The notes under the pieces are model-generated. The model worked only from the letters and a program-made list of their open reading frames with translations, had not been told where the DNA came from and did not search any database. 64,000 bases of DNA, taken from positions 23,312,001-23,376,000 of the forward strand of contig JBNRSN020000029.1 in the NCBI GenBank assembly GCA_051313645.2, written 5' to 3'. Source of the DNA: Centroscyllium fabricii (lineage: Eukaryota). This document shows, in pieces, positions 1 to 60,068 of the stretch. The position numbers and the translations under genes were made by a program. How positions within the stretch are numbered: the stretch's first letter is position 1; every line of letters starts with the position of its first letter.

Positions 1-13
1 CATCCCACCCCAT

Positions 14-260
14 CCCGTGGCTCAGCGGTAGCAAACTGAAGCACCACTCCAGAGACTTGAGCACATAACCCAGGCTGTCACTCCAGTGTAGTACTGTGGT
101 AGTGCTACACTGTCGGCGGTGCTGTCTTTCTTGTCAGACGTTAATCCCGGGCCTCATGTCCCATTAGTGTATGCGGAAAAAACGATGCTTTCTCGCCCAT
201 TACTGATCTAACCACCAAAGACACTAAAATAGAAAACCTCGTCATTAATGTTGATAAATA
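14..260 (+). mobile_element. Degenerate Deu-domain SINE (SacSINE1/AmnSINE-like)
   Basis: tRNA-like head CCGTGGCTCAGCGGTAGCA, then GACTTGAGCACATAA..CAGGCTG..ACTCCAGTG..GGTGCTGTCTTTC. Copy at 48931-49177. Confidence 0.65.
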
Positions 261-581
261 TTTTTAAAATTACATTGCCTCCTAAACGAGAAGTTTACCT
301 TCCTGCTCCCTGATCATTTGCCTATGTTCCCACTAATATTTCATTTGGTGGCAATCTCTAGACGAAGTTTAAAAGAGTTCTCAATCTCAGCTCCACTTTC
401 ATTCAAGAATTCCAGTGAGCTGTATTAATTTTAACAAGCTACGATCACTGCAGGGGCAAAGCGTATCAAAGACCAGAACGCGAGCGAGGTTTTGAGGAAA
501 TTTGCCTTTCAAACTCTATTTTAGATAAGGTTTAATAAAATGCGCGGCAAGTGTATAAGCATCAAACGTGCAAAGCAATAA

Positions 582-663
582 CGAAGAGGATGCGATTCGA
601 ACCCACGCGTGCAGCGAACAATGGATTAATATTCCATAGCCCTAACATCTCCGCCAGCTCGTC
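582..663 (-). pseudogene. tRNA-Ser(GCT) pseudogene
   Basis: Reverse complement GACGAGCTGGCGGAGATGTTAGG...GCACGCGTGGGTTCGAATCGCATCCTCTTCG aligns to vertebrate Ser-GCT; anticodon arm mutated. Confidence 0.85.
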
Positions 664-776
664 GCACCGATCAGGCGCTGCCAGCCATTGCATTGGCTGC
701 TTTTAGCATCTAAGTAGAAATACCCTGTAAGGAATGTACTTTCCGTTTATTCTGCCGGTGCACACAGATCTACAAT

Positions 777-835
777 GCTGGTCAAAGCACCTGTTTTGAA
801 ATCAGGCGATCCTGGGTCGACTCCCAGCGGAGCCT
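777..835 (+). pseudogene. 5'-truncated tRNA-Thr(AGT) pseudogene
   Basis: GCTGGTCAAAGCACCTG...CCTGGGTCGACTCCCAGCGGAGCCT plus T-run; paralog of the intact gene at 27459 with the same 3' flank. Confidence 0.8.
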
Positions 836-1099
836 TTTTTGCCTTTATGACCCTCCAGGCGTGAGTTTCTTCCCGTGTGAAAAAGTTTGCATCCTTTTAA
901 ATGTATCTGCGGCTGCACCAGATCCCATTCTGGGTAAAGGCTGCAGTCGATGCGGGGCGTTGGTCGATTTCCACCGCTGCCATCATATCAGGCGAAGCTC
1001 CTTTTCTCCTGTTCACCAAAAATCAATATTTTCTAACTGTGTCATGTGTGACTTTTGCTATGTTCAGTGCAGACAATTATGCAGCAGGTGCTGTTTGGC

Positions 1100-1171
1100 G
1101 CCGTGATCGTATAGTGGTTAGTACTCTGCGTTGTGGTCGCAGGAACCTCGGTTCGAATCCGAGTCACGGCA
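1100..1171 (+). tRNA. tRNA-His-GTG: tRNA-His(GTG), near intact
   Basis: 72 nt GCCGTGATCGTATAGTGGTTAGTACTCTGCGTTGTGG...GGTTCGAATCCGAGTCACGGCA; two substitutions from the vertebrate consensus, stems pair. Confidence 0.93.
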
Positions 1172-1782
1172 CAGCTCGCTTTATGTTTTCTGCGGCATCT
1201 GCTATGAAAACACAGGAAAAAATAAATCTTTACTGCATGAAACAAACATTTTTGGCGGTAAAAAATAACTTACTCTTTCAAAGCCCGCGCTCACACGGGC
1301 CTGAGCCTGATGCTCCATAATTCAAACCCGCCTCTTCAACAGCTTTTTTCCCTTCCACAATCAATAGCCCTCCGTTACTTTCCTCCTTCCATTTCATTGT
1401 CACTTTCCTGCGGAATTGCCTAAATCGAACATTCACTTTCACCTCCTTACACCATTACGTTTGCTCTGCTCCCACCGCTATTGCTGGGGGCTCAAGTTCC
1501 ATTCGCAGCACTCAGAATTGGTGCTTTACAACCAGTTGCTACATTTAGACCCGGGGGACCGCTCGACAGACAAGCGTTGCGAAAGCAGGGCCGGCCTTCG
1601 GAAGCAAAAAACCGATTGCGCACGAAATATTCTTGTCGTAATGCTTACGGAGTCTGACTTTGCTGCTAATTGCAGTCGATATTGTTGTCAGACCCGGATC
1701 ATTCTGTGTCTCTTTAAAACGGGTTTCCTCAAACTCCAGGAACATTATGTGTATTAGTCCTTTTAAAAAGAGTGCGATTTCA

Positions 1783-1852
1783 GCTGCGGTGACTGAGTTG
1801 TTAAAGTGTTTGAAGTTGCATTGTGTTTCACTGCGCAGGTGCGAACCCAACT
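1783..1852 (+). pseudogene. tRNA-Ser(TGA-type) remnant without the Pro insert
   Basis: GCTGCGGTGACTGAGTTGTTAAAG...CTGCGCAGGTGCGAACCC; long variable arm Ser pattern. Confidence 0.6.
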
Positions 1853-1964
1853 ATTCATTAAATGGAAATATGATCATCTTTGGCTAAATTCACTTCTTTG
1901 TATGATCTGTTCCCTGAATTTGCTCACAATTCTCTCAATCAACTAGTCACTTACAGAAGACAGC

Positions 1965-2053
1965 AGCCACGTGGCCTAATGGATATGGCGTATGATTTCG
2001 ATGCTCAACAGGATATTATCAGCAGCTTTCAGGGTCGAGTTCTGGCGCGGTCG
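1965..2053 (+). pseudogene. Intron-containing tRNA-Arg(TCG) pseudogene (intron 2002-2017)
   Basis: GTGGCCTAATGGATA..GATTTCG-A[TGCTCAACAGGATATT]ATCAG..GCGGTCG. Confidence 0.8.
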
Positions 2054-2290
2054 TTTCCCTCACCAGGCAAAACCTTTTCTTTTCTGTTCTGAATCTGCCT
2101 TCAAACCGACCATTTCTGACAGTTCCTCACCTGAAGTAATATAAGGCCTTTTGCTCACAGAAGCTGATTGTAAATTTAGAAAATTGCAGACCTGGGAGAA
2201 AGTGCAGGACATGCGGTGAAGGGCACTTTCTTGCAGAGTATTGCTGTTTGAATGCATGAAATGGAATGGCTGAGTAGAATGTAGATATGA

Positions 2291-2371
2291 GACGAGGTAG
2301 CCGAGAGGTTACGGGGATGGACTTAATCCAATGTGCTCTCCACGCATGTGGTGAAAACCGCATCCTTGTCG
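2291..2371 (+). pseudogene. tRNA-Ser(GCT) pseudogene
   Basis: GACGAGGTAGCCGAGAGGTTA...; 2-nt deletion in the anticodon, T-arm decayed. Confidence 0.8.
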
Positions 2372-2719
2372 TGATTGTGCACAACTTCTGATGCCGATAA
2401 ACCTTTCTCTGTATTTTAGTTAGAATAGGCTTTGTTCATCATCTTGCCAGAGGGGATCCTGATCTGTGTCCCTGCATTCTTTCTAGCTTATAATATTAAA
2501 ATGGACAATTAGAATTGTTCACCCAGTTGTAATTGAATGAAGGTGGAGCAGTGATCAGGAATGGGAGATCGAACTCTCTCTCGCTCTCTTCCTTCTTCCT
2601 TTCTTCCTCGTAGATTGACAGGGAATGATAGACTAGCGGGGAAAAATAAATATTAGTGAACAGAAACATAATATTTGGGAAGAAATTTTACTTCAATCCG
2701 TTTGTCCAATCTTAATGAC

Positions 2720-2960
2720 CAGATAACCTGTTTAGTGTCTTTAGTTGAGTGATAAATAATGGGGAATACATTAGGAAGAATACTCTGGTCTTTTCAAAAT
2801 ATTGCCATGGGATCTAAGGCCTACGATTGACGACTCATCAGAAAATCGACATCGCTGACAGTGCAGCTCTCCCTCAGTACTGCACTGGAGTGTCAGCCTG
2901 GATTATGAACTCTGCAGTGGGGCTTCAGTTTGCTGCCGCTGAAACACGGCTGACACCTAA
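2720..2960 (-). mobile_element. Deu-domain SINE, reverse strand
   Basis: GCCATGGGATCT...CTGACAGTGCAGC.CTCCCTCAGTACTGCACTGGAGTGTCAGCCTGGATTATG; same cassette position as copies near 10420, 35100 and 36680. Confidence 0.7.
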
Positions 2961-3769
2961 ACTCAGTTCATTCGGCTGGAGAGAAATGACGGAGATAAAG
3001 AGAAAGATGGCAGTGGAGTGAAGTTCAACTTGGCGCACAAGAATAAAGCGGGAATCGTTATCGACCGTCTGTTATAAAAAGCGCCCGATTAATGATACCA
3101 TCGATTTCCTAAGCAATCCAAATCATGCAATGTCTATAACGAGCACTGGATCGATAGACGAATAGAATCTAAGAAATGATGCCCTGTATATCCAAATCCA
3201 GGTCATTAATATATATATAATAGAGCAGTGAATGTGGCCTCAGGCAGCGCATTACAGCCCTTCCCTGGGAAACGATATACCGCGGCCCGGCCAAACCTTC
3301 CCATACACCGCGCACAAGGACAGCAAAAACAGGCCCAGCAACATTTGCCGAGGAACCGGAATGAGAAACATTTTATTTTATCTGTGATAGTTGTAAATAT
3401 GTTTGCTGTCTCTCTGTTGTGTAGTTGTAAGTTTGTTGGAAGCGTCATTGATCAACCGGTTATTCACTTGGTTAACTCTTCATGGGCAAAACTTTAAATC
3501 TTTTTTGTGTTTCTCATTTTCGTCGGCTCTCATTGTGTAGACTGTATTTTAGGAGTTGGGTAAAGCTATTCAGTGCTTATGACACCAGGATCTGGTGTAG
3601 CCTTTGGTAAAACAACAGCTCGCTAATACATGAGAGTAACACGTGCTTCACTCTTTGGTGCAAACCCAGCCAATGGGCTTCACTTAAACAACATTGCGCC
3701 CCCCGCACGATTCGACAGCCTGAAATGTGCAAGTAAATGAGCTCGGATAAAACTCAATCTTCAAGCGCA

Positions 3770-3864
3770 GCTCTAGTGGCGCAATCGGTTAGTGCGCGGT
3801 ACTTATATGACAGTGCTCGCTCGGAGAAATGCCGAGGTTGTGAGTTCGAGCCTCACCTAGAGCA
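3770..3864 (+). tRNA. tRNA-Ile-TAT: tRNA-Ile(TAT) with 21-nt intron (3808-3828), apparently intact
   Basis: GCTCTAG/CTAGAGC acceptor stem, TAT at 3804-3806, intron TGACAGTGCTCGCTCGGAGAA, intact B box GAGTTCGAGC. Confidence 0.93.
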
Positions 3865-5289
3865 GTCAGTGCTTTTGCTGTGTGATATTCCGACCGGAGC
3901 TGAAGATACAATTGGTGTTTCCTGCAAAATATCAACTTATTGGCTGTTCCACATGGGCTCTTAGTTTTCTCAGGTCCACCGTGTTGTAATAACGGATGGG
4001 AGTTTTAAAGGAGCCCTTCAGTGTTACTTATTCACATCAGGGAAAGAGGGTCCAGTTTTAACTGTTAAAGGCGTGTTAGATGGGGAGTATTTCTGTTTGT
4101 TCACAAAAAGCAGGATATGGAATGTGTGACCAAGCTTCCCAGCATTTGACTGAATCTTACACAAAATTAGCTTTAAATTCAATGTTGGTCCAAACCACTG
4201 GTCTTGGCCCGTTCTTTGTTCAGATCTGGTTAAAATTAGCACGGCCCACTGAAATTCTTCACCTTCTCGAATGAAGGTGAAACATTGACCGCGAATCGGA
4301 CAAAGAACTGACTTCCTTCTTCCTTCAGCTCGTTCGGCTGGAGTGAAATGGCGGAGTTTAAAAAAGATGAGATCCAAACAGAAACAATGCGCACGAAAGG
4401 CCTCTTCACCGTAAGTCCTGCCCGTTACATCCGGATCCACAAGTTTGAAAATATACAGTCAGCTTCTGTGAAGAAAAGGAATTTAGATATTTTCGTTACA
4501 TGAGGTCAGTGATTGTTGGAAATGGTCAGGTGTAAAACAGGTGCGATCCAGTTTAGAACCCAGTGTACAAACCGACCGCCGCAGACTGGAAACTACAATT
4601 ATCTGATAACATTATAATACACGTCAACGTTAAACATCTTATCCATGCTGTGATGCGGTTATCATTATCTGATTCCTAATTGTTCTTGAAATTCCACTGA
4701 ATTAACTGACTGGCGGAATCACGTTAACTCCAGGTGATCGGCTCGGCTCACCCTTGGGCCGAGTGGCGAGTGGAGCAAACACATTCTGCAACTGATTCCT
4801 TTATATTCTTCAGGGATGGGAAACTGCCCCCTACACTTCCTGTCACACAAGTGGCCCCAGTCCCAGTCCACATTCAGAAAGCTTAATCACCTCTGAGCTG
4901 GACTGGCGATCCATTTTCAAGAAGGAGGCTCATTGTCTGCTCAGCAGAAAAGTCAATCTGCTGGACGTCCAGCTCTGCCAGACTGCATGTTCCTTCAGAC
5001 AGCTTTCCAACTGGACACAAGCATCCAACTGCCGGGCAAGCATTGCTGACTAGTTCAAGTCACCAATATTAGACTCTTCTTAAAAAGTAGTTTTGAAACT
5101 ACGACTTGTATTATCAAATAAGGTATTTCAGAATTAATAGCTCAACATTGTCGTCTGTCTCCGCATCCTCATATAATCCACTCTAGAATAGTCAACTGTA
5201 TTCAAAATGTTGCATTATTTTACTGTGACCGCTAATAATCATTAGAGTGAAGACATTTGCCACGAATACTCATCATTTTCTGTCCTATA

Positions 5290-7830
5290 TGCGTGGCTGG
5301 AGAGATGGTCAATGTGTGGGGGCTTTATTGCTGAGGCATTTGGATCATTTCTGGAGAAGGTGGGTCCTATAAATGGTGAATGGGTTACACTTCAAGTGAA
5401 CCAGAACCAACATTCTGGTGGGAGGGTTAGCTGGTGCAGTTGGTGAGAGTTTAATCCAACTTGGCAGGGGGATGGGCACCAGATTAGAGGAGCAGAAAAG
5501 AGGACTAAGGTGCATAAAAGAGTGAGCGTGTTGGAAAATAATAGAGAAGAATGTAGCCCTGGAGGCGGATGTAGTACAATATTAGAGAGGAGCAAACTGA
5601 GAAAGACTACGAAAAATTAAAAAATGGGTTTACAATGCATGTACATAAATGTGGTAAATAAGGTTGGTCAGTAGACGCACAATTAGCTGTGTGACAATAT
5701 GATGCTGTAGCAAAAACCAAAACGGGCCTTTAAAACGGTAAGGACTTGGCATTTATTGTTAAAGGGTACAAGATGTTCAGAAAAGATATGGGAGGAACAA
5801 TGGTTGGTGGAGTGACAGCGCTGATTAATGAGGACATCGTAGTGTTGGACACGGAGAATGTGCTTGAGGAGTTAAAGACAGAATCCGTTTCGTTAGAGTT
5901 GATGAGAAAAAAGGTTGTGAGCACGGAATTGGGGGTATTCTAAAGGCCCCCAAATAGTGAGAGGGAGATAGAGCTTCAAATCTGCAGCGAAATCGGAGAC
6001 ATATGCCAGAGCTATAGAGTAGTGATATTGGAGGACTTTATTTACCCAAATATCGATCGGGAGAATGCTACATGTAAAGGAACGTAGGAGGAGGAAGTTC
6101 TGAAATGTGTTCAGGAGAAATCCCTTGACCAGTATATTCATTGCCCAAGTAGGAAGGAGGCGTTTCTGAACCTGATACTGCAGAATAAGTTGTGCCAGGT
6201 CGAACAATTGTCCGTCGGAGAACACTTGCAGTGATCATAATATCATAAGATTTAGATTAGCAATGGAGATGAGCAATCAACAATCTATAGTGGACGTCTA
6301 AACTGGAATAAGGCTAACTTCAATAGGAAGTGAAATGATCCAGCCAGGCTAAAATTGTACCAAATGATGAATGGGAAAGCTGTAACGTATCAAATAGTGA
6401 TCTTTAGGGAGGAGATGTTCCAAGTAAAGGCTAGATGCATTCCAAAAAGAGGGAAGGGTAAGGGAACCAAATCAAGAGCTCGTTGGATGACAGGAGAGTT
6501 GGAGAAGATGATGAAACAGAAAAAGAGGGTATATGATGAAGGTCAGGTGAATTCTTCAACGGTAAATCAGACCAAGTACAATAAGTTGAGAGGGGAAGTG
6601 AAGATGAAAGTAAGATTAGTGAAGAAAGAACATGAGAGTAGAATGGCGGTTAACATAAAAGGAAAACCCAAAACAGTAAAGCGGGTAATAAGAGGTGGGA
6701 TGGGGTCCATTACAGACAAGGAAGGTGATAGGATTCTCCGAGGTGCAGGGCAATGCCAGAATACTCAATGAGTGCTTTGTATCGTTGGTTCCTAAAGAGG
6801 TGGAAGCTAACAAAATATCAGTAGAATTGGAAACGGTAGAAGCAACGGAAGAATGTACTATATAGGCTGGTTATGCTTAGAGTGGAGAAGTCGCCTGGTC
6901 CAGATGGCTTGTATTACAGGTTGCTAAGCGAATTGCTTGAGGAGTTGGCGGAAGTGCGTGGCATAATTTTCCAATCTTCCCTAGATGCGGGGGAGGTGCC
7001 AGAGGATTGGACATTGGCAAATTTGACACCATTGTTAAAGAAAACGTCTAGGGACCAGCCAATAATTACAGGCCGGTCAGTTTAAAATCTGTGGTGGGTA
7101 AAGTTTCAGAAACAATAATGAAGTCTAAAATTAATGGGCAATTGGCGATGTTTAAGCTAATTAAGGAGAGCCAACATGGGTTTTTAAAGCAGAGATCGTG
7201 TTTGCGTAATCAAATTTAATTTTTTGATGAAGTAACAGGGAGGATTGATGAAGGGAATGCACTGGATGTTGTCTGAATGGACTTACAGAAGGAGACTGAC
7301 AAAGTAACACATAGAAGGCTAGTTGACAACATTGAAGCTCGTGGAATAGATGGATCAGTGGCAACTTGGAGTGGTGCAGCGCAGATTTACCAGATTAATA
7401 CCGAGGCTTACAGGGTAATCTTTTGAGGAGTAATTGCATAAACTAGGCTTCTGTTCTCTTGAATTTAGTGGATTGATGGGTGAGCTCAGCATGGTGTTTA
7501 AAGTGTTAAAATGTTTAATCGTGTTGATAGAGTTTAACTAGTTCATCTGTCTGGGAATCAAGTACAAGAGGGGAAAACTTGAAACTACAGCCGCTCCATT
7601 CAAAGGCAAATCCGAAAGCATCTTTTCACATAAAGGTTTGCAGCAATCTGAAACTCTCCACACGATAATTCCGTGGGGTCAATTGTTGCTTCCAATACTG
7701 GGACTGACAAGTTGGAGTTAAGCAAGTCAATCAAGTTATGTGGAGCAATGGCAGAAAAATGTAGGGTAGGTGCAGATCAGCCATCATCTAATGTAATGTT
7801 GGAGCAGGTAGAAGTTTGAAAGGACTAATC
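5290..7830 (+). mobile_element. Old degenerate CR1 LINE (ORF1 end, APE, partial RT, 3' end)
   Basis: Fragmented ORFs with KSPGPDG, VPEDW..ANLTPL, SQHGF..NQIEFFDEVT motifs; many stops; internal deletion near 7368. Confidence 0.85.
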
Positions 7831-8039
7831 GCGCTCTAAGGTCGTGAATTCTGTTCTCTTCCTTCTCAGAGATCGTTACCCTACATTAGCTGTCAGCAGA
7901 CTGGATCAATAAATCTTATTTGCACTCCTTCTAATTTGGAAGGTAGATTCACACGAAGCAACTCCACCCTTCATTCTCCTTTTCCAGTGCCGGCACAGCT
8001 AGAAGCAGAGGAAATGGCAGTTGTACCAGGTTCAACCAC

Positions 8040-8560
8040 ACACAGCAGTACCTTAAATCTAGTCCCCCAGACACCCTCCAGTTTAAATCCCTCCAAACCC
8101 AAGAGCAGAACCCAGAAAAGAGTCCCCTGTGTCAGTTGGTATTGAGACAAACTACTCCTACTCATTCAATCCTTGACCAGTCTCATATCAACACTACTTT
8201 CCAAACACCAATTAGAATGAACCAAATCATCAAACAATGCGAAGAAACCTATTTGGAACATTGGGATAAAGCAACCAAAAAACAAAGCAGATTACAATGA
8301 TACCGTGCCCTGAAAAGAGATGATAAATTGGCAGAATATCTCTCAACTGTCAGAAATATAAAGCAGAGACAGACCCTCACTAGGTACAGACTAAGTTACC
8401 ACCAGTTGGCAGTCGAAAAAGGAAGACAGAAGAAATCCTGGCAGCCAAGAGAAAATAGAATATGCGGTCAATGTCTGAGAGATGAGGTTGAAACAGAGGT
8501 GCACTTCCTCCTAAAATGCAAAAGATTCGACAAAACAAGGTTTACCGGTGAAAACACAAG
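8040..8560 (+). mobile_element. 3' fragment of a non-LTR element with C-terminal CCHC finger (RTE-X-like)
   Basis: ORF 8328-8573: LTRYRLSYHQLAVEKGR...PRENRICGQC..EVETEVHFLLKC. Clade assignment from memory. Confidence 0.7.
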
Positions 8561-9051
8561 CTCACTGAGGTAGAAGATTGTCGCATCATAGAACCATAGA
8601 ATGACGCACTTTCCCACAGCCCCGCACATTGTTCGTCATCAAATCATTATCCAATACCCTGCTGAAAGTTACCGCAGTATTGGCCCAACAGCTCAGGCAA
8701 TGCAATCCAGATCATAGCTACCCTCCGAGTAATAAAGCAATCTCATCATCTCACATCTGGTTCTTTTGCCATTTAAATCAATAATTTAAATCTGTGCTCG
8801 ATAAATCTGTGTAGCTAAGGGTAGGAATGGATTTGCTTTCAAAGCAGGTGGTTGAAGTTGAGATCCAGGTCAGACATGATCTCACTGAATGGCGGAAAAG
8901 GCTCGATGGGCTGAATGGCCCACTCCTGTTCCTATTTCCTGTCAATCGGCGGAGCTTCTGCTGTAAATGTAGGAAGGTGCCTGGATATATGAAATATAAC
9001 TATGACAATTTCTTTCCCAATGGTTGCAATTCTCGGATGAGTTATCACCTC

Positions 9052-9134
9052 CACCAGAGTAGTGGTCTAACCTGCACGAATTGACATAGACTCGAACTTT
9101 ATCTTGAATCGTTAAACCACTCGGCCATGTTGGT
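9052..9134 (-). pseudogene. Highly decayed tRNA-Leu(TAA)-like pseudogene
   Basis: Reverse complement starts ACCAACATGGCCGAGTGGTT and ends CTCTGGT; 83 nt, long variable arm. Confidence 0.55.
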
Positions 9135-9279
9135 GATATTAATAGCGACGCGCAGTTGTACACAATTCAACAAATTCCTTTCACATCAAAATACCAACCC
9201 ATTGATAATGCCATTGATTTGAGAGCTGCTGTGGAAGAATTTAACATCAGTTACTTTCCAGTTTCCTGCTCCTCACCGT

Positions 9280-10280
9280 CTGCTTTTCATTATGGGCTTC
9301 CATTCCCTCTACACCTCCAGCAGGGCGGCTGAAGTGCTCTCCGCTTCTTCCTTGAATGGAGGCCAACACAGTCCCTATTCACTAACACCCTCCTCCGCCT
9401 GGCTGAACTTGTTTTGAACATACATTGAACTATTTCTCATTTGAATCCACTCACATGAACCAACTAAGGCCACTTGCTTCCACCGCTAACTTGACGACAC
9501 TTCCTCCCACCTTGATTCCTGTAACTATATTCCTTTATCTCGGTTTCTCCGTCTCCATCACATCTCTTCTGATGACGGCACATTCCGATGTGTTTCATTT
9601 TTGCCTCAGCCGAGGAACTGCCTCCACAATGGTGGGCAGGACCCTAGACATTGGCCGTTCTATTTCCCTCACTCAGGTTCTCACCCATTCCCCTCCCTAT
9701 CAGCAGCACGATAGGGTTCCCCTTGTCCTCAGCTTTCACCCCACCAGCCACCACATTCAACGGATTATCCTCTGCCATTTCCAGCACCTCCAGCGTGATC
9801 CCACCACCAAACACATCTTCCCCTCCCGTCCCCTTTCAGCATTCGTAAGAGACCGCTTCCTCTGTGACACTCTGTGACACTCATCTATCACCCGACCATC
9901 CCTTCCCCTTCCCACGGCACCTGCCTGTGCCAAAGCAGGAGATGCAACACCGGCCATTTTACCCCCTCCTTTCCTAAAGTCCAGGGTCCCAACACACTTT
10001 CCAGGTGAAACTTCGAATTGCTTCTTCTTCTTGCAATTTCGTAATCTGTAATAGCTGCCGATTACTCTTCATTGGGGAGACCACACACAGATTGGGTGAT
10101 CGTTTTGCCAAACACCTCACTTCAGTCCACAAGCTTCCGGTCGCTGGTCATCTTAATTCTCCTCCCCACTCTCATTCTGACCTCTCAGTCGTAGGCCGCC
10201 CACACTGTTCTAATGAAGTTCAATCGGAGCTCGAACAACAGCACCTCATCTTTCGAATAGGCACTTGTTAGCCTGCCCTC
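9280..10280 (+). mobile_element. Penelope-like element fragment (RT C-terminus plus GIY-YIG endonuclease)
   Basis: RVPLVLSFHPTSHHIQRII..HFQHLQRDPTTKHIFPS; C..LFIGETTHRLGDRFAKHL..VAGHLNSPPHS..EQQHLIFRIGT. Confidence 0.85.
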
Positions 10281-10842
10281 GACCTTTTCCTCGTCCTTTG
10301 CTAAATGGCTTTATCTGAATTCACCTGCTCAAGAACATTACTGCGTGTTTCCTACAGAACTCAATAAGCTCCAGCGAGGCAGAGGATTGAGCCTCCTAGA
10401 GTGAGTCGGTTGACCGCCACACCAGAAAGACGGCACCGCTGACATTTCAGTTCTCCCTCAGCACTGCAATAAATGGAGTGTCAGCCAGGATTATGTGCTC
10501 AGGTCTCTGGAGTGTGACTTGCGGTTGCTCCCGCTGAGCTACGTCTGACACCTAAACTCAGTTCAATCGGCTGGAATGAAATGACGGAAATAAAGTGAAT
10601 ATGATAATGGAGCAAAACTTCAAATTGGCCCATTAGATTAAATCGCGCGTCGTAATCTGCCGCCCATGAGAGAAACCGCCGATTTATATTTCCATCGATT
10701 TCATAATCAATGATAATCAGGCTGTTTATAATGGCGGGGTCGAGGTCAGTCAAGGTTCACTATGTGTCTGTTTAAACCGGGTGTGCTCACAGTCCCGCAG
10801 CATTCAGTGTGTCAGTATACTTTTTAAAGAAAAGCGATCCCA

Positions 10843-11035
10843 GATATAATGGCTGAGTTGGTGAGTTTTAACTAAATATGGCGGGGATCGTTCGGAATTG
10901 GAACCCGGGACCTCTCGCATTTTAAGTAGCGCAATTCCCACAGCGAGAATCATTCCGCTTGACCAACGAGCCGCCGAGGACCTGACCGAAATTGCATTAG
11001 GTTGCCCTGCGCTGTTGTGAACCCAGTTCGCAGAG
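10843..11035 (+). pseudogene. Split tRNA-Ser(TGA-type) remnant enclosing an antisense Pro gene
   Basis: 5' half GATATAATGGCTGAGTTGGTGAG (10843-10865); 3' half GAAATTGCATTAGGTTGCCCTGCGC..GAACCCAGTTCGCAG (10988-11035); flanks match the uninterrupted remnants at 1783 and 28498. Confidence 0.6.
10884..10972 (-). pseudogene. Intron-containing tRNA-Pro(TGG), degenerate (intron 10920-10936)
   Basis: Reverse complement GGCTCGTTGGTCAAGCGGAATGATTCTCGCTGTGGG[AATTGCGCTACTTAAAA]TGCGAGAGGTCCCGGGTTCCAATTCCGAACGATCCC. Confidence 0.88.
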
Positions 11036-11152
11036 GACCTGTTCATTGATTTTAAATTTGTTTATCTTTCCTGAAATTCACTTATTTATATGAGCAGTTT
11101 CCCTGAATCTGCTCGCAATTCTCCGCATAAGAACAACGTCGGCGTTAGCAGC

Positions 11153-11223
11153 GGCCGCGTGTCCTAATGGATAATGCGTCCGACTTCGGTGTAAATCGTT
11201 CAGTTATCAGAAGAGTGCAGGTT
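11153..11223 (+). pseudogene. Intron-containing tRNA-Arg(TCG), 3'-deleted (intron 11190-11205)
   Basis: GGCCGCGTGTCCTAATGGATAA..GACTTCGG[TGTAAATCGTTCAGTT]ATCAGAAGAGTGCAGGTT; 3' T-arm and acceptor strand missing. Confidence 0.85.
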
Positions 11224-11464
11224 GTTTAAATATATGGGATAATCTTTTTTTCCCTATTCTGAACCTGGCTTCAAACCGAGCATTTCTTACAATCCCCCAC
11301 CTGAAAATAACGGAAGGCCTTACATGAAGCTGATTGAACATTTTAAACATTGAAGGTCTGAGTGCACGGACAGGACAACTGGTGAAGGGGACCTTCGTTC
11401 AGATTTGTTTCTGCCTAGATGCAAATGACAGGAAATGGAATGATTGAGTACAGTGCATCCGACA

Positions 11465-11546
11465 GACGATGTCGCCGAGACGTTAAAGCTATGAAATGCT
11501 AATCCATTGTGCTCTCCACGCTTGGGTTCGAATATCATCCTCGTCG
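11465..11546 (+). pseudogene. tRNA-Ser(GCT) pseudogene
   Basis: Full length with GCT anticodon and GGTTCGAAT; D-arm and stems mutated. Confidence 0.85.
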
Positions 11547-11871
11547 TTATTACGTTTCACTGAATACTGCGGAAAACAGGATTTGTAATCGCAAATCTCG
11601 TCAAAATCGCAGTGGTGATGCAGCGCTGTGCCACTGCACACATCCTATCTTATTAAAGTAATTGCAGACCACTGGCGATCTTCAACGTCTTGGATGCAGG
11701 TGGGGCAGCAATCGTGACTTCCAGGCACTAAACGAAAGACTTGTGGGAGCAGAGGATCTGTTCCTTGATTTTAGATATGTGTATATTTCCTGAAATTCAC
11801 TTCTTTATGTGAGCTGTTTCCCTGAATCTGCTCACAATTCTTTCCATAAAAGGAACGTCGCCGGCAGCAGG

Positions 11872-11927
11872 GGTCGCACAGCCCAATGGATAAGGCGCCT
11901 GACTTCGGTATGAATCGTTCAGTTATC
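11872..11927 (+). pseudogene. 5' exon plus intron of tRNA-Arg(TCG)
   Basis: AATGGATAAGGCGCCTGACTTCGG[TATGAATCGTTCAGTT]ATC; part of a local duplication of about 11040-11210. Confidence 0.8.
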
Positions 11928-12049
11928 TACAGAATGTCCACTTGCAGAGACAGGGCGCAAAAAACATCAGGCATTAACTCAAAATCCTAATTATAGGGAC
12001 AGTTAATGTTCTGGGGTGCGAAATTCGGTCACAGCTGCAAACAAATATG

Positions 12050-13252
12050 TGTACGAGAGAGAGAAAGTAATTTCTCTGGTGGGAGGGTCCAGCAAAATAG
12101 GCCACAACCGTAAAATTAGAGCTACACCGTTCAAACATGATGGGCCAGAATTTTGTCTGTGCAGGTTGGTGCGTGCGCTAGGACCCTGCGGACACCTATC
12201 GCACGCACCAACATCGCACAGAAGTTGCACCCTGACTTTCCTCCCCGTTCCTGCGCTGCGTGGCAGTCCAGCCACGCTGGGAGCGCAGATGATACGCTGC
12301 CGTCGTGCGTGGGCATCAGTGATGCCCCGCCCCCAGATCACCGATTTACATTAAAAAACGCCCCCAGATCCCCAATTTAAATTAAAAAACTCCCCCGTTT
12401 TAGAGTCGGACCCGGTAGGGAGCAGGGACGTGAGGCGCTGCAGCCAAAGACTCGGCGGGGAGCAGCGCGGGCAGAGCAGCTTCTCAGAGGAAGAAACGCA
12501 AGGTAAGTCTCTGCCATTTATTCTCTTAGATTTTTTACAATAGCTAGATAGTTAAAAATTTCAGAAATTTAACTTTAAAAATTAGCGATTTGAAACAGGT
12601 AAATTAACTTAAAATCGGATTTGTAATTAAAAAAAAAAATACTTTAACTTAAAAATTTAACGCTACCGATTTGGCCGCATTAATCCCCAAAACTGTAAAA
12701 AATTAAAATTAAAGTTAAAAAATTAACTTACCTGCTTTTGTAACTAAATCTTGTCCCTCACGAACGAGTTACTACTGTTTCTCCCGGGTGCAGCTTGTGG
12801 GCCAGTTGCCCACAGAATCACTCACCAAAAATCACCCTTTTTGGATTCCAAATTCTGGGTGCAACTCACTCCTGCGTTTGATGCTGAGGGCCCTTCTCCC
12901 TCAGCATTCGAAATCTCCGTTCCGTAGGCATCCCGCACGGGGCATTTTGGCCCCCTCCGTGAGTGTGCAGCTACTGTGGTCAACACGAAATTCTGGGCCG
13001 ATGTAAGGAAGCGCTTCTTCACCCCGAGGTTAGTGGGAATCTGGAACACTCTCCGACAAAATGCTGTTGAGGCTGGGGTCAATTGCCAATTTTAAAATTG
13101 AGGTGGATAGATTTTTGTAAGGCGAGGATCTGAAGGTTTATGGAGTGAGAGCAGGTAATAGGAGTTAAGACACAGATCAGCCAAGATCGACTTGAATATC
13201 GGAGCAGGCTCGACTGCTCAATGGGCCCCCTCCTGTTTCTATGTTCCTATGA
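12050..13252 (+). mobile_element. CR1 3'-end fragment interrupted by a MITE
   Basis: Reads GHNRKIRATPFKHD|VRKRFFT..VGIWNTLRQ across the insertion; ends TTTCTATGTTCCTATG. Confidence 0.75.
12142..12999. mobile_element. Non-autonomous DNA transposon (PIF/Harbinger-like MITE), 858 bp, 3-bp TSD GAT
   Basis: Termini GGGCCAGAATTT...GAAATTCTGGGCC; GAT at 12139-12141 and 13000-13002; removal restores the host CR1 frame. Confidence 0.85.
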
Positions 13253-13365
13253 TTGAAACAGTTGTAAACACACGTTGCATTTTATTTATATTTAGCAGCA
13301 AATATATTCATGCTGTGCGCAACTCTGCTGTGTTGAGAGCCAACACCCCGCTGCTGATATGTGCC

Positions 13366-13437
13366 ACCGTTGTCGTAAAATGGCTGATGATCTGCGTTGC
13401 AACCGCAGCAGCCTCGGCGCGAATCCCTCTTACAGCC
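13366..13437 (+). pseudogene. Decayed tRNA-His pseudogene
   Basis: TCTGCGTTGCAACCGCAGCAGCCTCGG..CGAATCC followed by CAGCTCGCTTTATG, the same 3' flank as His at 1100. Confidence 0.7.
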
Positions 13438-14826
13438 CAGCTCGCTTTATGTCGTCTGTACTCTGATAGACCTGGGACACATCAGTATTTACCACCTGAA
13501 GAAATGTGTCTTGTTGGTGATGAAAACCTATTTACTCCTTCAAATTCCCGCGCTCTCACAGGCCTGTGTTATTGCTCCATAATACAACCCCGGCAACGTT
13601 ATCTTCCTTCCACAATCGCCAGACTCCTTTACTTTCCTCCTTCCATTTCATTGTCACTTTGCTGCGGTACTGCGTAATCTAACATTCACTTTCAGCTGTT
13701 TACCCCGTATTTTTGATCTGCTACCACCGCTGCTTTGGGCACAGGACCCATTAGCTCCAATGTGCCTTACAATCAGTCGATTCATTTAGATATGTGGGAC
13801 TGCTCGACAGAGAAGTGCTGGAAAAATGGGGCCGGCCTTCGGACGGAAAGCGGCCCGATTTTTCATGAAATTTTCTTAGGGAATCTTGTGATCCAGGGCC
13901 TTAACTGAAGAACTGGATTTCATTATCGTGCTGGTTGGCGCTTTTCAAAAAGCAGTTGAGATGCGTAAATGACGGGCAGCGCCAGCTCGCTGCCAAGGAG
14001 GGTTTAAATGTGAAACTTCGGCCGCTGGGGCGGTGCAGGAAGATCGAATGTGATACGACTTAATCTTTACAGGTCTTTTGAATTGTGCGATTGAAACAAT
14101 CAATGGAAACACGAAAAGGGCACTAGTGGGTGAAAGCAGCGATTACAAGAGGTTGGCCATAATTGAAAGGTCTTTGAATGTCCGTGGTACGGGACGCTGT
14201 GTTCATTATGAAGAGCGGGAGCAGAATAAAGTTTAAAAGAAATGAAATGTACAAAGCTGGTGCCAATCAGAAAACTGCGCTGGCCTGAAATTGATAGAAA
14301 GTATGAAATTAATTTAATTTTCAATTGATAAAGTAAACCATTGTTCCAGCTTCCAAGGCTGGATTGCTCTTTGTTGGCCGGCGGGGCCATGTTGGGCCGA
14401 AAGGGCCTCCTTTCGTGCTGTAACCTTCTATGATTCTATGATTCCTCATCGTTTGATTTTCCCGTTAATCTTTCAAGTATTGTAAAGCCCCTGTAGATAG
14501 AGTTCGCTCTCATCTTCTCCCATCGATGTGACAATGAAACAGGAGGAGGCGAGGATTGCCCCGAACAGCAGAGCTGGGCACTGACTCTGGTTCTATTGCT
14601 GCAGAAGTTGTTCAGTTCCTCTAAAGATTGCCCTCACCATTGAAACGCCTGTTATAACTCACTGGCTTGAAACGGTCTATGTTATAATAAGTTGGAAAGT
14701 TTCAATCAAATAGATTTTAATACATCTGCAGAAAGACGATGTTAGGATTGGAACTGGTAAGCTTTTGATCACAGAGTCAACATCAAAATCATGCTTCATG
14801 TCAAATAATGCAGGAAAGTGCGAACA

Positions 14827-15237
14827 AGCGAGGCCCAGAGCACAGCGGCAGCGCGACGTGGAGCGGACCTAGGGGGGGTCCCATAGTCGGCGGCGGCGGC
14901 GGAAATAGCAGCGAGGAGGCGGCTACAAAAGTCGCCGAGGAGCGAGGCCCAGAGCACAGCGGCAGCGAGGCCCAGAGCACAGCGGCAGCGCGACGTGGAG
15001 CGGACCTAGGGGGGTCACATAGTCGGCAGTGGCGGCGGAAATAGCAGCGAGGAGGCGGCTACAAAAGTCGCCGAGGAGCGAGGCCCAGAACACAGCGGCA
15101 GCGAGGCCCAGAGCACAGCGGCAGCGCGAGGTGGAGCGGACCGAGGGGGTGTCCCATAGTCGTCGGCAGCGGTGGAAATAGCAGCGAGGAGGCGGCTACA
15201 AAAGTCGCCGAGGAGCGAGGCCCAGAGCACAGCGGCA
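14827..15237 (+). repeat. CR1 5'UTR tandem monomers (~136-137 bp period, ~3 copies, with 23-bp subrepeat)
   Basis: AGCGAGGCCCAGAGCACAGCGGC units at 14941, 15077, 15214. Confidence 0.9.
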
Positions 15238-15241
15238 GGAG

Positions 15242-21399: not shown

Positions 21400-22210
21400 A
21401 CCCCGGCACCTTCCCGTGCAAGCACAGGAGATGCAGCACCTTCCCTTTCAACTGCCCCCTTCCCACCGTCCAGGGCCCGAAACACCCGCTCCAGGTGAAA
21501 CAGCGAAATCCTTGTACTTCTTTCAATGTAGTAAACTGTATTCGCTGCTCACACCGCGGCCACCTCTACATTCGGGGGAACAATCGCAGATTGTATGATC
21601 GCTTTGTGGAGCACCTTCATTCGGACCGCAAGCGTGACTCTGAGCTTCTGTCCTCGGCCTCCTATACTTTTCAAATAAAGCTCACTGGAAGCTCGAGGAA
21701 CAGCACCTCATCATTTCATCCAGATTCAATTTCAGTTCATCAATTTCAGTTCATCAATTTCAATTCATCAATTTCAGTTCATCAATTTCAGTTCATCAAT
21801 TACAGTTCATCAATTCCAGTTCATCAATTTCAGTTCATCAATTCCAGTTCATCAATTTCAGTTCATCAATTTAAGTTCATATCCACTGTTCCCATTGTGT
21901 GGACAGCAGCTGTTGATAATGACGCTGCTGTTGCCATTTACACCTCCTCTGGATCCATCTTCTGTTTCTTTATTGTCCAATTTCCGCCCTTTTTACCTTG
22001 CACCATTATCTCTTTTGTCATTAAATCTTTCCAGACCTTCCCCGTGATATTTCCTCTGCTCCCCCTTTGCCTGCGATTGTATTTGCTTTAAACCTGTTAC
22101 ATTTCTAACTTGTTCCAGTTCTGATGAAAGCTCGTCGATCTGCAATGATAACTCTGTGTCTCTCTTCACAGACGCTGCCCGACCTGCTGAATGTTTCCAA
22201 CATTTTCAAC
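21400..22210 (+). mobile_element. Penelope-like 3' fragment (GIY-YIG remnant, 3'UTR with decayed hammerhead at 22121)
   Basis: VVNCIRCSHRGHLYI..RRLYDRFVEHL; CCAGTTCTGATGAA...CACAGACGCTGCCCGACCTGCTGA. Confidence 0.75.
21728..21880 (+). repeat. 14-bp minisatellite (TTTCAGTTCATCAA)n, about 10-11 units
   Basis: Directly visible tandem array with single-base variants. Confidence 0.92.
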
Positions 22211-28497: not shown

Positions 28498-28560
28498 GCT
28501 GCGATGACCGAGTTGTTAAGGTGTTGCATTGGGTTTCCCTGCGCAGGTGCAAACTGAGGT
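28498..28560 (+). pseudogene. tRNA-Ser(TGA-type) remnant without the Pro insert
   Basis: GCTGCGATGACCGAGTTGTTAAGGTGTTGCATTGGGTTTCCCTGCGCAGGT. Confidence 0.65.
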
Positions 28561-29203
28561 CGCTTAATTCGAAATATATCCATATTTTCCTAAATCCACT
28601 CCTTGAAACGAAGTGTTGCACTGGATGTGCTCACAACCCTCCCGACAACTTCTTGACGATGCCAAACGTTTTCTTCTCTGTTCAGAATTTAGCATCAAAC
28701 CGACTATTACTGACAGGGCCACCCTGAAGTATGGGAAGGCCTTTTGCTGACAGAAGTTGATTGTACATTTTCAACATTGTAGGGGGGGTGCACGGGCAGG
28801 TGAATGGAAGAGCTGAGAGCGTTGCGGACGGGCGGCGAGGTGGCCATCGCTCTGTGTCCCGGGTCTGTCGCTGTCTCTCAGGATGTCAGTACAGCCACAA
28901 ACACCACACACTGCCTTTGAGGACCGGACGCAGGTCTGGTCAGTGTATCCTCGCAACTACCTCGGGAGTTTAATGATTGCGGAATTAAGAACATTTCGCT
29001 GTCTGACTTGTATAGATTTAATCAGTGAATTATTTGTGAAAGAGAAACAGAGGAGAAAGATTGAGAGCTTTCACTGTGGGACAGAAGTGATAGTGTTTAT
29101 TGGAGAAGTAATGCAATCTCTGACAGTGCAGAGAGTGATGACTCAGCATTTGCCCTTATCCCTAAGCACATGCTCTGACTTGCGATTCCACAATGGAGCA
29201 GAG

Positions 29204-35417: not shown

Positions 35418-35679
35418 ATTTGCCCACTAGATTAAACCGCGCATCGTAATCTGCCTCCCGTTATAGAAACCGCCGATTTATATTTCTATCGATTTCATCA
35501 GCAATGATAATCAGGCCTGTCTATAATGCCGGGGTCGTGGTCAGTCAATATTCACGATGTGTCTGGTTAAACCGGGTGTGCTCACACACCCGGATCATTC
35601 AATGTGTCAGTATATTTTTGATAGAAAAACCATCACAGACGTGATGGCCGTGTTGGTGAGGTTTTACTGAAATATGGCG

Positions 35680-35768
35680 GGGCTCGACCGCGATTTGAAC
35701 CCAGGACCTCTCGCATTTTACGTAGCGTGGCGCCAGAAACGAGAGTCAGTCCCCGAGACCAAATAACC
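35680..35768 (-). pseudogene. Intron-containing tRNA-Pro pseudogene nested in Ser remnant (35638-35831)
   Basis: 3' exon TGCGAGAGGTCCTGGGTTCAAATCGCGGTCGAGCCC preceded by a ~17-nt insert at 35716-35732 ending ..GCTACGTAAAA. Confidence 0.8.
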
Positions 35769-35948
35769 GCCTAGTGCCTCATTGAAATTGCATTAGGTTG
35801 CCCTGTGCTGCTGTGAACCCAGTTCGCAGAGGACCTGTTCATTGATTTTACATATGTTTATATTTCCTGAAATTCAATTCTCTATATGAGCAGTTTCCCT
35901 GAATCTGCTCGCAATTCTCCGCATAATAAGAACGTTGGCGTTAGCAGA

Positions 35949-36353: not shown

Positions 36354-37169
36354 TTATTACTTTGCACTGAATGCTACGTGATACAGGATTTGTACTCGCA
36401 TTTTCGTCAAAATCACATTGGTGATTCAGCGCCGGGCCCCTGCTCTCTTCACATCCTGTTAACATAAAAGCAGACCACGAGCGATCCCGAATGAAGGTGG
36501 AGCAGCAATCGCGAATCGCAGGCACGCAATGAAATGATTTGTGAGCAAAACCATAACATTTCCGTTTCAGCGGAAATGTAATTTTAAACATATTTATAGA
36601 CCTTAATCACGAGATTTTCTGGTTTAGTTTCATTGGTTGGGAGTTAAATAATAGGGAGAAATCCTCACTCTTTTCCGCATATTTTCATGAGATCTGAGAC
36701 CTCGGTTGAACGTCATACCAGAAAGACGGAAACGCTGACATTTCAGTTCTCCCTCAGCACTGCAATGGAGTGTCAGCCAGGATTATGTGCTCAAGTCTCT
36801 GGAGTGTGACTTGCGGTTGCTACCGCTGAGCTACGTCTGACACCTAAACTCAGTTCATTCGGCTGGAATGAAATGACGGAGATAAGTGAAAACGATAGTG
36901 GAGCAAAACTTCAAATTGGCCCAGTAGATTAAATCGCGCATCGTTATAGAAACCGCCGATTTATATTTCCATCGATTTCATAAGCAATAATAATCAGGCC
37001 TGTCTACAATGGCGGGGTCGTGGTCAGTCAAGGATCACGATGTGTCTGGTTAAACCGGGTATGCTCACAGTCCCGGATCATTTAAAGAAAAACTATCCCA
37101 GACGTGATGGCCGAGTCGGTGAGGTATAACGAAATAAACTCACAGTCCCGGATCATTCAATATGTCAGT

Positions 37170-48342: not shown

Positions 48343-48521
48343 GCTAATGCTGCTGAGTCGCTTTTTATGGGGCGAATCATGTGGAGATTGAAGCAAATTG
48401 CTGAAAATAAGAAGTGGATTGAGAAAAATATGAACATATTTCAAATTAATTAATAGGTCTCTCCGAGCTGGGTTCGCACCGGCGCAGGGAAACCCAATGC
48501 AATTTCAAACACGTCCTGGGC

Positions 48522-48612
48522 GGCTCGTTGGTCTAGGGGTATGATTCTCGCTTTGGGAAATTTCATGAGCCGGAAATGCGAAAAGTCCCGGGTTCAAATC
48601 GCGGACGACTAC
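48522..48612 (+). tRNA. tRNA-Pro-TGG: Intron-containing tRNA-Pro(TGG): consensus 5' exon, 19-nt intron (48558-48576), mutated 3' exon (likely pseudogene)
   Basis: GGCTCGTTGGTCTAGGGGTATGATTCTCGCTTTGGG[AAATTTCATGAGCCGGAAA]TGCGAAAAGTCCCGGGTTCAAATCGCGGACGA; TTTT at 48620. Confidence 0.9.
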
Positions 48613-48756
48613 CCCCGCATTTTGTAAAACTATAACGGGCGGCCCATGGCGATGCCCAGTTTTTTCTTGGACGCAAAGTTGAAGGTTGAATCGATTATCA
48701 CTTCCCCTTCATCTCAGTCATTAAACTCCATCCGAATGAACTATGTTTCGGTGTTA

Positions 48757-48930
48757 GAAACATAGAAACATAGAAACTAGGAGCAGGAGTAGGCCATTCG
48801 GCCCTTCGAGCCTGCTCCGCCATTCAATGAGATCATGGCTGATCATCCAAACCCAGAGAATCGCGCCCCTGCCCTCTCCCCACATCCCTTGATCCCCATC
48901 GAGCCTGTATCAACACACATCCCATCCCAT
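48757..48930 (-). mobile_element. 3' tail of an HE1-like SINE; spans the point matching window position 1
   Basis: (AGAAACAT)n-AGGAGCAGGAGTAGGCCATTCGGCCCTTCGAGCC. Confidence 0.85.
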
Positions 48931-49498
48931 CCCGTGGCTCAGCGGTAGCAAACTGAAGCACCACTCCAGAGACTTGAGCACATAACCCAGGCTGTCACTC
49001 CAGTGTAGTACTGTGGTAGTGCTACACTGTCGGCGGTGCTGTCTTTCTTGTCAGACGTTAATCCCGGGCCTCATGTCCCATTAGTGTATGCGGAAAAAAC
49101 GATGATTTCTCGCCCATTACTGATCTAACCACCAAAGACACTAAAATCGAAAACCTCGTCATTAATGTTGATAAATATTTTTAAAATTACATTGCCTCCT
49201 AAACGAGAAGTTTACCTTCCTACTCCCTGATCATTTGCCTATGTTCCCACTAATATTTCATTTGGTGGCAATCTCTAGACGAAGGTTAAAAGAGTTCTCA
49301 ATCTCAGCTCCACTTTCATTCAAGAATTCCAGTGAGCTGTATTAATTTTAACAAGCTACGATCACTGCAGGGGCAAAGCGTATCAAAGACCAGAACGCGA
49401 GCGAGGTTTTGAGGAAATTTGCCTTTCAAACTCTATTTTAGATAAGATTTAATAAAATGCGCGGCAAGTGTATAAGCATCAAACGTGCAAAGCAATAA

Positions 49499-50088: not shown

Positions 50089-50881
50089 CAGCTCGCTTTA
50101 TGTTTTCTGCGGCATCTGCTATGAAAACACAGGAAAAAATAAATCTTTACTGCATGAAACAAACATTTTTGGCGGTAAAAAATAACTTACTCTTTCAAAG
50201 CCCGCGCTCACACGTGCCTTAGCCTGATGCTCCATAATTCAAACCCGCCTCTTCAACAGCTTTTTCCCCTTCCACAATCAATAGCCCTCCGTTACTTTCC
50301 TCCTTCCATTTCATTGTCACTTTCCTGCGGAATTGCCTAAATCGAACATTCACTTTCACCTCCTTACACCATTACGTTTGCTCTGCTCCCACCGCTATTG
50401 CTGGGGGCTCAAGTTCCATTCGCAGCACTCAGAATTGGTGCTTTACAACCAGTTGCTACATTTAGACCCGGGGGACCGCTCGACAGACAAGCGTTGCGAA
50501 AGCAGGGCCGGCCTTCGGAAGCAAAAAACCGATTGCGCACGAAATATTCTTGTCGTAATGCTTACGGAGTCTGACTTTGCTGCTAATTGCAGTCGATATT
50601 GTTGTCAGACCCGGATCATTCTGTGTCTCTTTAAAACGGGTTTCCTCAAACTCCAGGAACATTATGTGTATTAGTCCTTTTAAAAAGAGTGCGATTTCAG
50701 CTGCGGTGACTGAGTTGTTAAAGTGTTTGAAGTTGCATTGTGTTTCACTGCGCAGGTGCGAACCCAGCTATTCATTAAATGGAAATATGATCATCTTTGG
50801 CTAAATTCACTTCTTTGTATGAGCTGTTCCCTGAATTTGCTCACAATTCTCTCAATCAACTAGTCACTTACAGAAGACAGC

Positions 50882-59200: not shown

Positions 59201-59799
59201 TCGACCTTTTCCTCGTCCTTTGCTAAATGACTTTATCTGAATTCACCTGCTCAAAAACATTACTGCTTGTTTCCTACAGAACTCAATAAGCTCCAGCGAG
59301 GCAGAGGATTGAGCCTCCTAGAGTGAGTCGGTTGACCGCCACACCAGAAAGACGGCACCGCTGACATATCAGTTCACCCTCAGCACTGCAATGATGTGTC
59401 AGGCAGGATTATGTGTTCAGGTTTTTGGTGTGACTTGCGGTTGCTCCCGCTGAGCTACGTCTGACACCTAAACTCAGTTCAATCGGCTGGAATGAAATGA
59501 CGGAAATAAAGTGAATATGATAATGGAGCAAAACTTCAAATTGGCCCATTAGATTAAATCGCGCGTCGTAATCTGCCGCCCATGAGAGAAACCGCCGATT
59601 TATATTTCCATCGATTTCATAATCAATGATAATCAGGCTGTTTATAATGGCGGGGTCGAGGTCAGTCAAGGTTCACTATGTGTCTGTTTAAACCGGGTGT
59701 GCTCACAGTCCCGCAGCATTCAGTGTGTCAGTATACTTTTTAAAGAAAAGCGATCCCAGATATAATGGCTGAGTTGGTGAGTTTTAACTAAATATGGCG

Positions 59800-59888
59800 G
59801 GGATCGTTCGGAATTGGAACCCGGGACCTCTCGCATTTTAAGTAGCGCAATTCCCACAGCGAGAATCATTCCGCTTGACCAACGAGCC
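59800..59888 (-). pseudogene. Intron-containing tRNA-Pro(TGG) (copy of 10884)
   Basis: Duplicate sequence. Confidence 0.88.
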
Positions 59889-60068
59889 GCCGAGGACCTG
59901 ACCGAAATTGCATTAGGTTGCCCTGCGCTGTTGTGAACCCAGTTTGCAGAGGACCTGTTCATTGATGTTAAATTTGTTTATCTTTCCTGAAATTCACTTA
60001 TTTATATGAGCAGTTTCCCTGAATCTGCTCGCAATTCTCCGCATAAGAACAACGTCGGCGTTAGCAGC

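Follow-up and report, generated by a model that had tools for sequence, protein, structure and literature searches.

How an intron-bearing tRNA gene comes to lie antisense inside a second tRNA gene is the question raised by positions 10843–11035 of the window, by which we mean the whole 64,000-nucleotide stretch analyzed here (C811:23312001-23376000) from the 7.2-Gb genome of Centroscyllium fabricii. Vertebrate-type tRNA genes and their remnants are present in the window, and deletions and inversions abound in the cluster. A 48.9-kb segmental tandem repeat, about seven copies of which stand in a row on C811, is represented in the window by positions 1-15087 and 48918-64000 (99% identity). Other repeats found are a 136-bp tandem repeat rich in G+C and an array with 11 copies of a 14-bp unit (14827-15238, 63740-64000, and 21726-21880).

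The nested unit and related sites in the window

The unit at 10843–11035 is composed, in order, of Ser nucleotides 1–24, the Pro trailer, exon 2, intron and exon 1, a spacer, and Ser nucleotides 36–82, with the Pro gene (10972-10884) on the opposite strand (Table 1). The antisense nesting of an intron-bearing Pro gene inside a Ser tRNA pseudogene is real. The matches of the 3′ Ser portion to intact Ser-CGA (33/47) and to the empty site L172 (37/47) exceed shuffle maxima of 25 and 26, respectively (100 shuffles for the intact Ser-CGA match), while Ser nucleotides 1–24 taken alone reach 15/24 compared with a shuffle maximum of 15, no better than chance. The Pro copy itself is decayed, with 8 changes in 72 exon nucleotides that include U33 and the B box, and its exons no longer count as intact. 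No match to the Rfam tRNA model RF00005 was found at any Ser remnant or nested Pro gene in the window, nor at the empty sites or intact nested Pro genes in seven loci, and the model is too insensitive for this result to count either way. It misses even the natural contiguous empty site that is 62/82 identical to intact Ser-CGA, so that a failure of the rejoined halves to score as a tRNA, named in the initial annotation as a refutation, is no usable criterion; contiguous empty sites served in place of rejoined halves. Free-energy folds of the window copies were no better than those of shuffled sequences.

Table 1. Coordinates of the nested unit at 10843 and of the other filled and empty sites in the window.
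Feature	Positions	Strand	Remarks
Ser-CGA pseudogene nt 1–24 (acceptor 5′ strand and D arm)	10843..10866	+	15/24 to intact Ser-CGA; homologous to clearer copies
Pro trailer, 17 nt	10867..10883	-	T-run of three T, compared with four in clade B
Pro exon 2, B box damaged	10884..10919	-	32/36 to intronless Pro gene
17-nt intron at 37/38, third-last base A	10920..10936	-	Sequence
Pro exon 1 with TGG anticodon and a U33-to-G change	10937..10972	-	32/36 to intronless Pro gene
Short leader and hypervariable 5′ flank, 16 nt	10973..10988	-	Likely partly eroded Ser nt 28–35
Ser-CGA pseudogene nt 36–82	10989..11035	+	33/47 to intact Ser-CGA; 37/47 to empty L172
Copy of the 10843 unit in next 48.9-kb repeat	59759..59951	+	99.5% identical
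Second filled unit, Pro decayed, anticodon CTG	35638..35831	+	Ser nt 1–24 at 17/24
Inverted unit: Ser nt 36–82 (48505-48459), Pro on + strand (48522-48612)	48459..48629	-	19-nt intron; TTTT at 48620
Truncated filled unit: Ser nt 1–24 and 12 nt of insert	37101..37136	+	18/24
Empty Ser pseudogene, 5-nt internal deletion, 3′ end lost	1783..1850	+	Ser nt 1–24 at 19/24
Copy of the 1783 empty site in next 48.9-kb repeat	50700..50767	+	99% identical
Empty Ser pseudogene, 12-nt internal deletion	28498..28563	+	Ser nt 1–24 at 22/24; E_L061 outside filled clade

An initial annotation of this DNA had assigned the same two Ser halves to six loci. Nesting is confirmed at 10843, 35638, and 59759; the inverted locus, placed there at 48461-48655, lacks the Ser 5′ part, which was lost through a deletion of about 190 bp (Ser 1–24 scores 12/24, below shuffle), and the TTTT terminator reported at 48620 is present. 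Because 59759 and 50700 are 99% repeats of 10843 and 1783, the number of independent cases among the six is smaller than it appeared. The Ser remnants described as contiguous at 1783 and 28498 are indeed empty sites, but neither is whole, their 5- and 12-nt deletions falling in the anticodon arm around the insertion point. The host had been typed as Ser(TGA); full-length empty sites instead read TCGAA at the anticodon and are of Ser-CGA type. The nested genes had been called Pro(TGG), which is correct at 10843 and not at 35638, where CTG is read.

Filled and empty sites and the direction of change

A genome search for the filled form returned 496 and 507 preliminary candidates, figures that should not be read as copy numbers. 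The 140 distinct filled units compared here fall into 35 clusters at 92% identity, and 139 filled and 8 empty sites were counted in 510 kb of chosen, nonrandom regions; C480, C945, and C1338 are small contigs on which assembly redundancy may inflate the number of copies. The full-length empty site at L172:1585-1666 spans 82 nt, has a CGA anticodon, and is identical to intact Ser-CGA at 62 of 82 positions, and of the 10 listed empty clusters of pseudogene type, 7 keep the whole anticodon arm.

A host-only tree of 31 filled units with complete long flanks and 12 empty sites split the two forms at 100/100. In a tree rooted with six intact Ser genes and containing 15 of the 31 filled rows, the filled units form one clade (98/99), and the empty sites lie outside it in three lineages that include both window types; E_L072, a repeat copy of the 1783 type, groups with the empty sites in the trees. 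Branching among the empty sites is itself weak, and a branch that sets all of them apart appears in 20% of bootstrap trees. Eight substitutions relative to intact Ser, changes in the A and B boxes among them, predominate in filled and empty sites alike, and both outer flanks of the filled units match the same empty family. The shared substitutions and the tree placement of the empty sites suggest that the host was dead and duplicated before it was interrupted, and the likely event is a single insertion into this already dead, already duplicated Ser gene, not a deletion. The proposal of the initial annotation that a precursor-sized Pro unit was inserted into a Ser gene and then amplified with its cassette is supported by the full-length empty sites, the single filled clade, and the window empties outside that clade; the converse that it had named, an ancestral Pro gene with empty forms arising by deletion, disagrees with the position of the empties outside the filled clade when intact Ser genes serve as outgroup.

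A history with no insertion, in which the Pro gene came first and two deletions occurred between tandem Ser copies, or in which the empty sites are deleted filled units, would make sense of the deletions that both window empty types carry around the insertion point, in an array where deletions are common. We nonetheless regard it as very improbable and already largely refuted: two deletions would need to leave complementary halves, and the intact anticodon arms of most listed empty clusters, the rooted tree, and the matching outer flanks all speak against it.

One filled unit at L142:7514 (C811:26.32 Mb) has a downstream flank resembling that of the intact C811 Ser genes, which likely reflects recombination or preserves the ancestral flank.

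The fate of the Ser halves after insertion was also considered. In the least changed copies, the halves could still form 6 of 7 acceptor-stem pairs, as would be expected if they worked as a tRNA that is trans-spliced or has a long intron, or if they regulated Pro in antisense. Such a role is hardly credible, since the A and B boxes of the host were already damaged when the insert arrived, the break falls after nucleotide 24 and not at 37/38, and the halves change at the rate of the outer spacers (0.119 vs 0.114, p 0.80); we rejected it on the broken boxes and the spacer-like evolution. In the split and permuted tRNAs of archaea and algae the halves are conserved, expressed, and joined, whereas the Ser halves here are spacer-like with broken boxes.

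Insert boundaries and the template of the founder

The insert is bounded by Ser nucleotides 24 and 36, with at most 16 nt before and at most 17 nt after the Pro gene, and as judged from these boundaries it is the size of a pre-tRNA. At the left junction Ser stops at nucleotide 24 and the Pro trailer starts directly, with no SINE or LINE part between them; the insert extends 5–6 nt beyond the run of four T, and in L081, the copy with the fewest changes, these nucleotides form an inverted repeat of the adjoining Ser D loop. At the right junction, 15–16 nt lie between Pro and Ser nucleotide 36 in 33 of 34 clusters, where Ser 25–35 would need 11. The last 8 spacer bases agree with empty-site nucleotides 28–35 at a mean of 3.23/8 over 90 spacers, copies that are not independent, compared with 1.95 for shuffles (0/2000), and the spacer of the 48655 type matches at 7/8. 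This resemblance shortens the leader to about 3–9 nt; a leader of that length is also favored by the dispersed copies described below, and the 12–15 nt initially proposed is probably too long. Loss of target sequence at the insertion amounts to 0–4 nt, with an eroded right junction and a 5-nt inverted repeat on the left.

The insert carries a full trailer and T-run, is not 3′-truncated, and has at most 1 nt in common with the target at the junction. No A tail was seen at the insert. A target-site duplication of the 8–35 nt kind is likewise absent there, 33 of 34 spacers having only 1–2 nt beyond Ser 25–35 and a 3-nt leader; such a duplication had been suggested as a check on the aligned loci, and none was seen.

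Genome-wide searches with exact intron-bearing Pro patterns, covering the TGG (25) and AGG (72) forms, yielded 97 matches: 66 in nested arrays, 29 dispersed, and 2 un-nested. None of these 97 is an un-nested donor that shares both intron and trailer with the nested genes, and 53 exact trailer matches led to 8 more regions in which every Pro gene called was nested. The donor gene with identical leader and trailer anticipated by the initial annotation was therefore not found by exact gene and trailer patterns. The un-nested intron-bearing Pro genes at L127:684-771 (C3) and L315:6184 and 6672 (C689) have unrelated introns and short trailers, and are possible relatives of a lost donor. An exact intronless Pro motif has 11 matches genome-wide, 8 that look like ordinary genes and 3 that look like their retrocopies; none of the 11 is a spliced copy with flanks of the nested type.

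All 29 dispersed copies keep the intron, and their introns are 74–100% similar to the nested ones. They match the nested leaders for a median of 4 nt (at least 3 nt in 23/29, compared with 198/1450 random positions), and most end in or near the T-run. By motif, 22 are fused to a SINE head, possibly of HE1/HER1, and 2 to a LINE tail; by inspection the remaining 5 adjoin SINE- or LINE-like sequence, one of them a reverse-transcriptase frame (RVT_1, E 5.8e-22). Target duplications of at least 10 nt were absent at the 29 copies with one exception, which lies within a repeated LINE tail. By their sequence, the dispersed copies show themselves to be daughters of the nested Pro genes, and thereby that the nested genes were transcribed in the germ line; being unspliced and fused to SINEs and LINEs, they also show, on the same footing, that unspliced pre-tRNA was reverse-transcribed in this germ line, and that the insert has the length of the precursor. 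The daughters are evidence for the route itself and not for its use by the founder.

Ordinary Ser and Pro genes likewise have dispersed copies with precursor trailers on the same SINE head or LINE tail (L193, L199, L201, L202, L203, L276, L277, and L286), which suggests that pre-tRNA chimeras are a genome-wide class. Chains of two pre-tRNAs occur at L200:1501-1673 (C711) and L194:1401-1582 (C814), each consisting of a tRNA with a T-ending trailer, a 4-nt leader, a Ser gene with its trailer, and then a SINE head or LINE-like sequence; these look like serial end-to-end template jumps.

The reading that we favor as probable is that the founder was an RNA-templated insertion, in which a reverse-transcribed, unspliced pre-tRNA was patched into the Ser pseudogene after nucleotide 24. 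The Ser gene would have died, the pseudogene would have been duplicated, and one copy would then have taken the insert, with the pre-tRNA reverse-transcribed into a break in the pseudogene, most likely by a LINE reverse transcriptase acting at the break without its own tail. The insert has A and B boxes and a terminator of its own, such that Pol III could have read the Pro gene at once in the opposite direction, and the Pro gene likely became a working gene before it multiplied with the cassette. The initial annotation had posed DNA-level capture and retro-copying as alternatives; the evidence leans toward an RNA template without settling the matter.

Capture at the DNA level, with a break repaired by copying a short piece of DNA from a nearby intron-bearing Pro gene through template switching or end joining and all later steps unchanged, is in our estimate unlikely, though it accounts for several features. 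The insert lacks a tail, a target duplication, and any SINE or LINE part, which sets it apart from the 29 dispersed copies; in L081 the 5 nt after the terminator mirror the Ser D loop in a way that resembles fold-back synthesis during break repair; deletions and inversions are frequent in the cluster; and un-nested intron-bearing Pro genes do exist, at C3 and C689. However, both ends of the insert coincide to within a few bases with those of the transcript (no more than 16 nt of leader and 6 nt beyond the T-run), an outcome expected by rough estimate in about 1 of 100 captures of fragments of a few hundred bases, and a fold-back at the junction also fits a cDNA patch (PMC5110952).

The favored RNA-templated insertion can be compared with several known systems. 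Among these are the class 2 templated sequence insertions, for which an RNA template has been proposed, and which are similarly short patches with no target duplication or A tail (PMC5110952). They also show small junction changes, which the insert, with 0–4 nt of lost target and a 5-nt inverted repeat, may share, and have an intact donor elsewhere in the genome. These are human polymorphisms, and tRNA is absent from the text of that report, whereas the nested patch is a whole self-promoting gene that has been fixed and amplified. Mammalian tailless or pre-tRNA retropseudogenes are described as 3′-truncated pseudogenes with target duplications of 8–35 nt (Schmitz et al. 2004, as cited in PMC5322556 and PMC4476161); they resemble the nested Pro gene in placing precursor sequence without an A tail at a new site (PMC5322556, PMC4476161), but the nested gene is full length with intron and terminator, lacks a duplication, sits inside a tRNA gene, and has been amplified with intact exons. 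The U6-L2 and U6-AnolisSINE2 template-switch chimeras (PMC4476161) run at the 3′ end into SINE or LINE sequence, as the 29 dispersed copies do, and human tRNA-L1 chimeras, as far as they are described, involve mostly antisense tRNA halves (bioRxiv 10.1101/2025.02.02.635956), in contrast to the sense, full-length, unspliced dispersed copies here. The nested founder differs from all such small RNA–LINE/SINE chimeras in having no SINE or LINE part.

Probable activity and spread of the nested Pro family

Although the Pro copy at 10843 has decayed, 40 of 139 sampled filled copies match the intronless Pro gene at every exon position other than 34, and the family as a whole thus retains intact exons with A and B boxes. 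All 40 are among the 100 copies on C480, C945, C1377, and C1338, with none among the 39 on C811; the C811 copies, the 10843 unit included, have since decayed, and those on the other four contigs mostly have not. Host sequence changed by about 0.11 per site between the filled ancestor and one perfect copy, at which rate about 8 changes would be expected in 71 nt without selection. In clade B (17 rows), diversity rises to 0.48 at −15 to −4 and 0.29 in the intron over a background of 0.12 (p 6e-8 and 1e-5), while exon diversity (0.084 vs 0.116 for background) is not significantly lower (p 0.20); in clade A, exon diversity (0.184) is above background (0.150). The raised flank diversity of clade B is like the pattern of transcribed tRNA genes, in which variation in the flank peaks 10–15 bases upstream (PMC6130373).

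The pairing of the intron with the anticodon loop is also kept. Position 32 and the third-last intron base together form the A-I pair. In the nested family the third-last base is A in 125/128 copies, and position 32 can pair with it in 62 of 65 distinct loop–intron combinations; pairs that join the anticodon loop to the intron number 264, compared with a shuffle mean of 153 and a maximum of 180. The nested Pro intron (17–19 nt) lies at 37/38, one base 3′ of the anticodon, which is the canonical position for eukaryotic tRNA introns, and the A-I pair is named in a figure legend of the same source (PMC4090602). Together, the hypervariable flank at −15 to −4, the kept anticodon–intron pair, and the 29 dispersed copies indicate past germline transcription, insofar as sequence patterns can. 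Nested copies with AGG, TGG, and CGG anticodons occur at L128:9508, L131:766 and 2368, and L134:611, which suggests that the family switched anticodon after the insertion. Well over a hundred copies of the nested unit have arisen, dozens of which are intact and probably working.

Sequencing runs of two other organisms contain 0.48–0.74 of the words of an intact unit, and contigs from one run of each cover the trailer and Ser part; one of the four runs examined gave no cover of the unit. RNA runs were not present among the listed sequencing runs carrying unit words. From a third organism, which is more distant, comes one loose end of 20 letters that can be read as trailer running up to Ser. This loose end is a weak hint that the insertion is older than this species.

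The kinds of element involved, namely the tRNA retrocopy, the templated insertion, and the amplified tRNA cassette, are already known, and the nested Pro gene is a variant of them. Our search of the literature found no animal nuclear genome in which one tRNA gene is described as lying within another, and no account of this family. A genome survey of new tRNA gene sites leans toward chromosomal rearrangement and, in its available text, mentions tRNA retrogenes only in passing (PMC2888827). Shark tRNA clusters have been described as similarly large, with many intron-bearing loci, in an account that gives counts in its main text with no isotype, origin, or nesting, and whose figure or supplements may list Pro (bioRxiv 10.1101/2025.06.08.657570). 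We tentatively suggest that a single reverse-transcribed, unspliced pre-tRNA may have founded the most numerous working Pro family of this genome, several-fold above the intronless genes, and that it likely adds to the excess of intron-bearing tRNA genes in sharks; this larger claim could quite possibly prove wrong. If true, a functional tRNA gene would be documented as having been born through RNA, and its empty site, its amplified array, and its own retrocopies would all survive as the record. The RNA route is directly testable, because one genome preserves in readable form both the empty and the filled site along with the ends of the transcript. The dead Ser halves provide a neutral ruler beside the Pro gene, against which purifying selection on exons and transcription-linked mutation at −15 to −4 could be gauged in one unit, and the dispersed chimeras record germline pre-tRNA starts and ends in an animal with little small-RNA data.

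The cassette that carries the nested unit also contains Arg-TCG genes with a 16–18 nt intron (L007-L030 near 1910-2001; L128:828-919). To our knowledge Arg-TCG is not a usual intron-bearing tRNA type in mammals. A decayed Arg-TCG copy can be recognized by eye in the window near 11150-11230.
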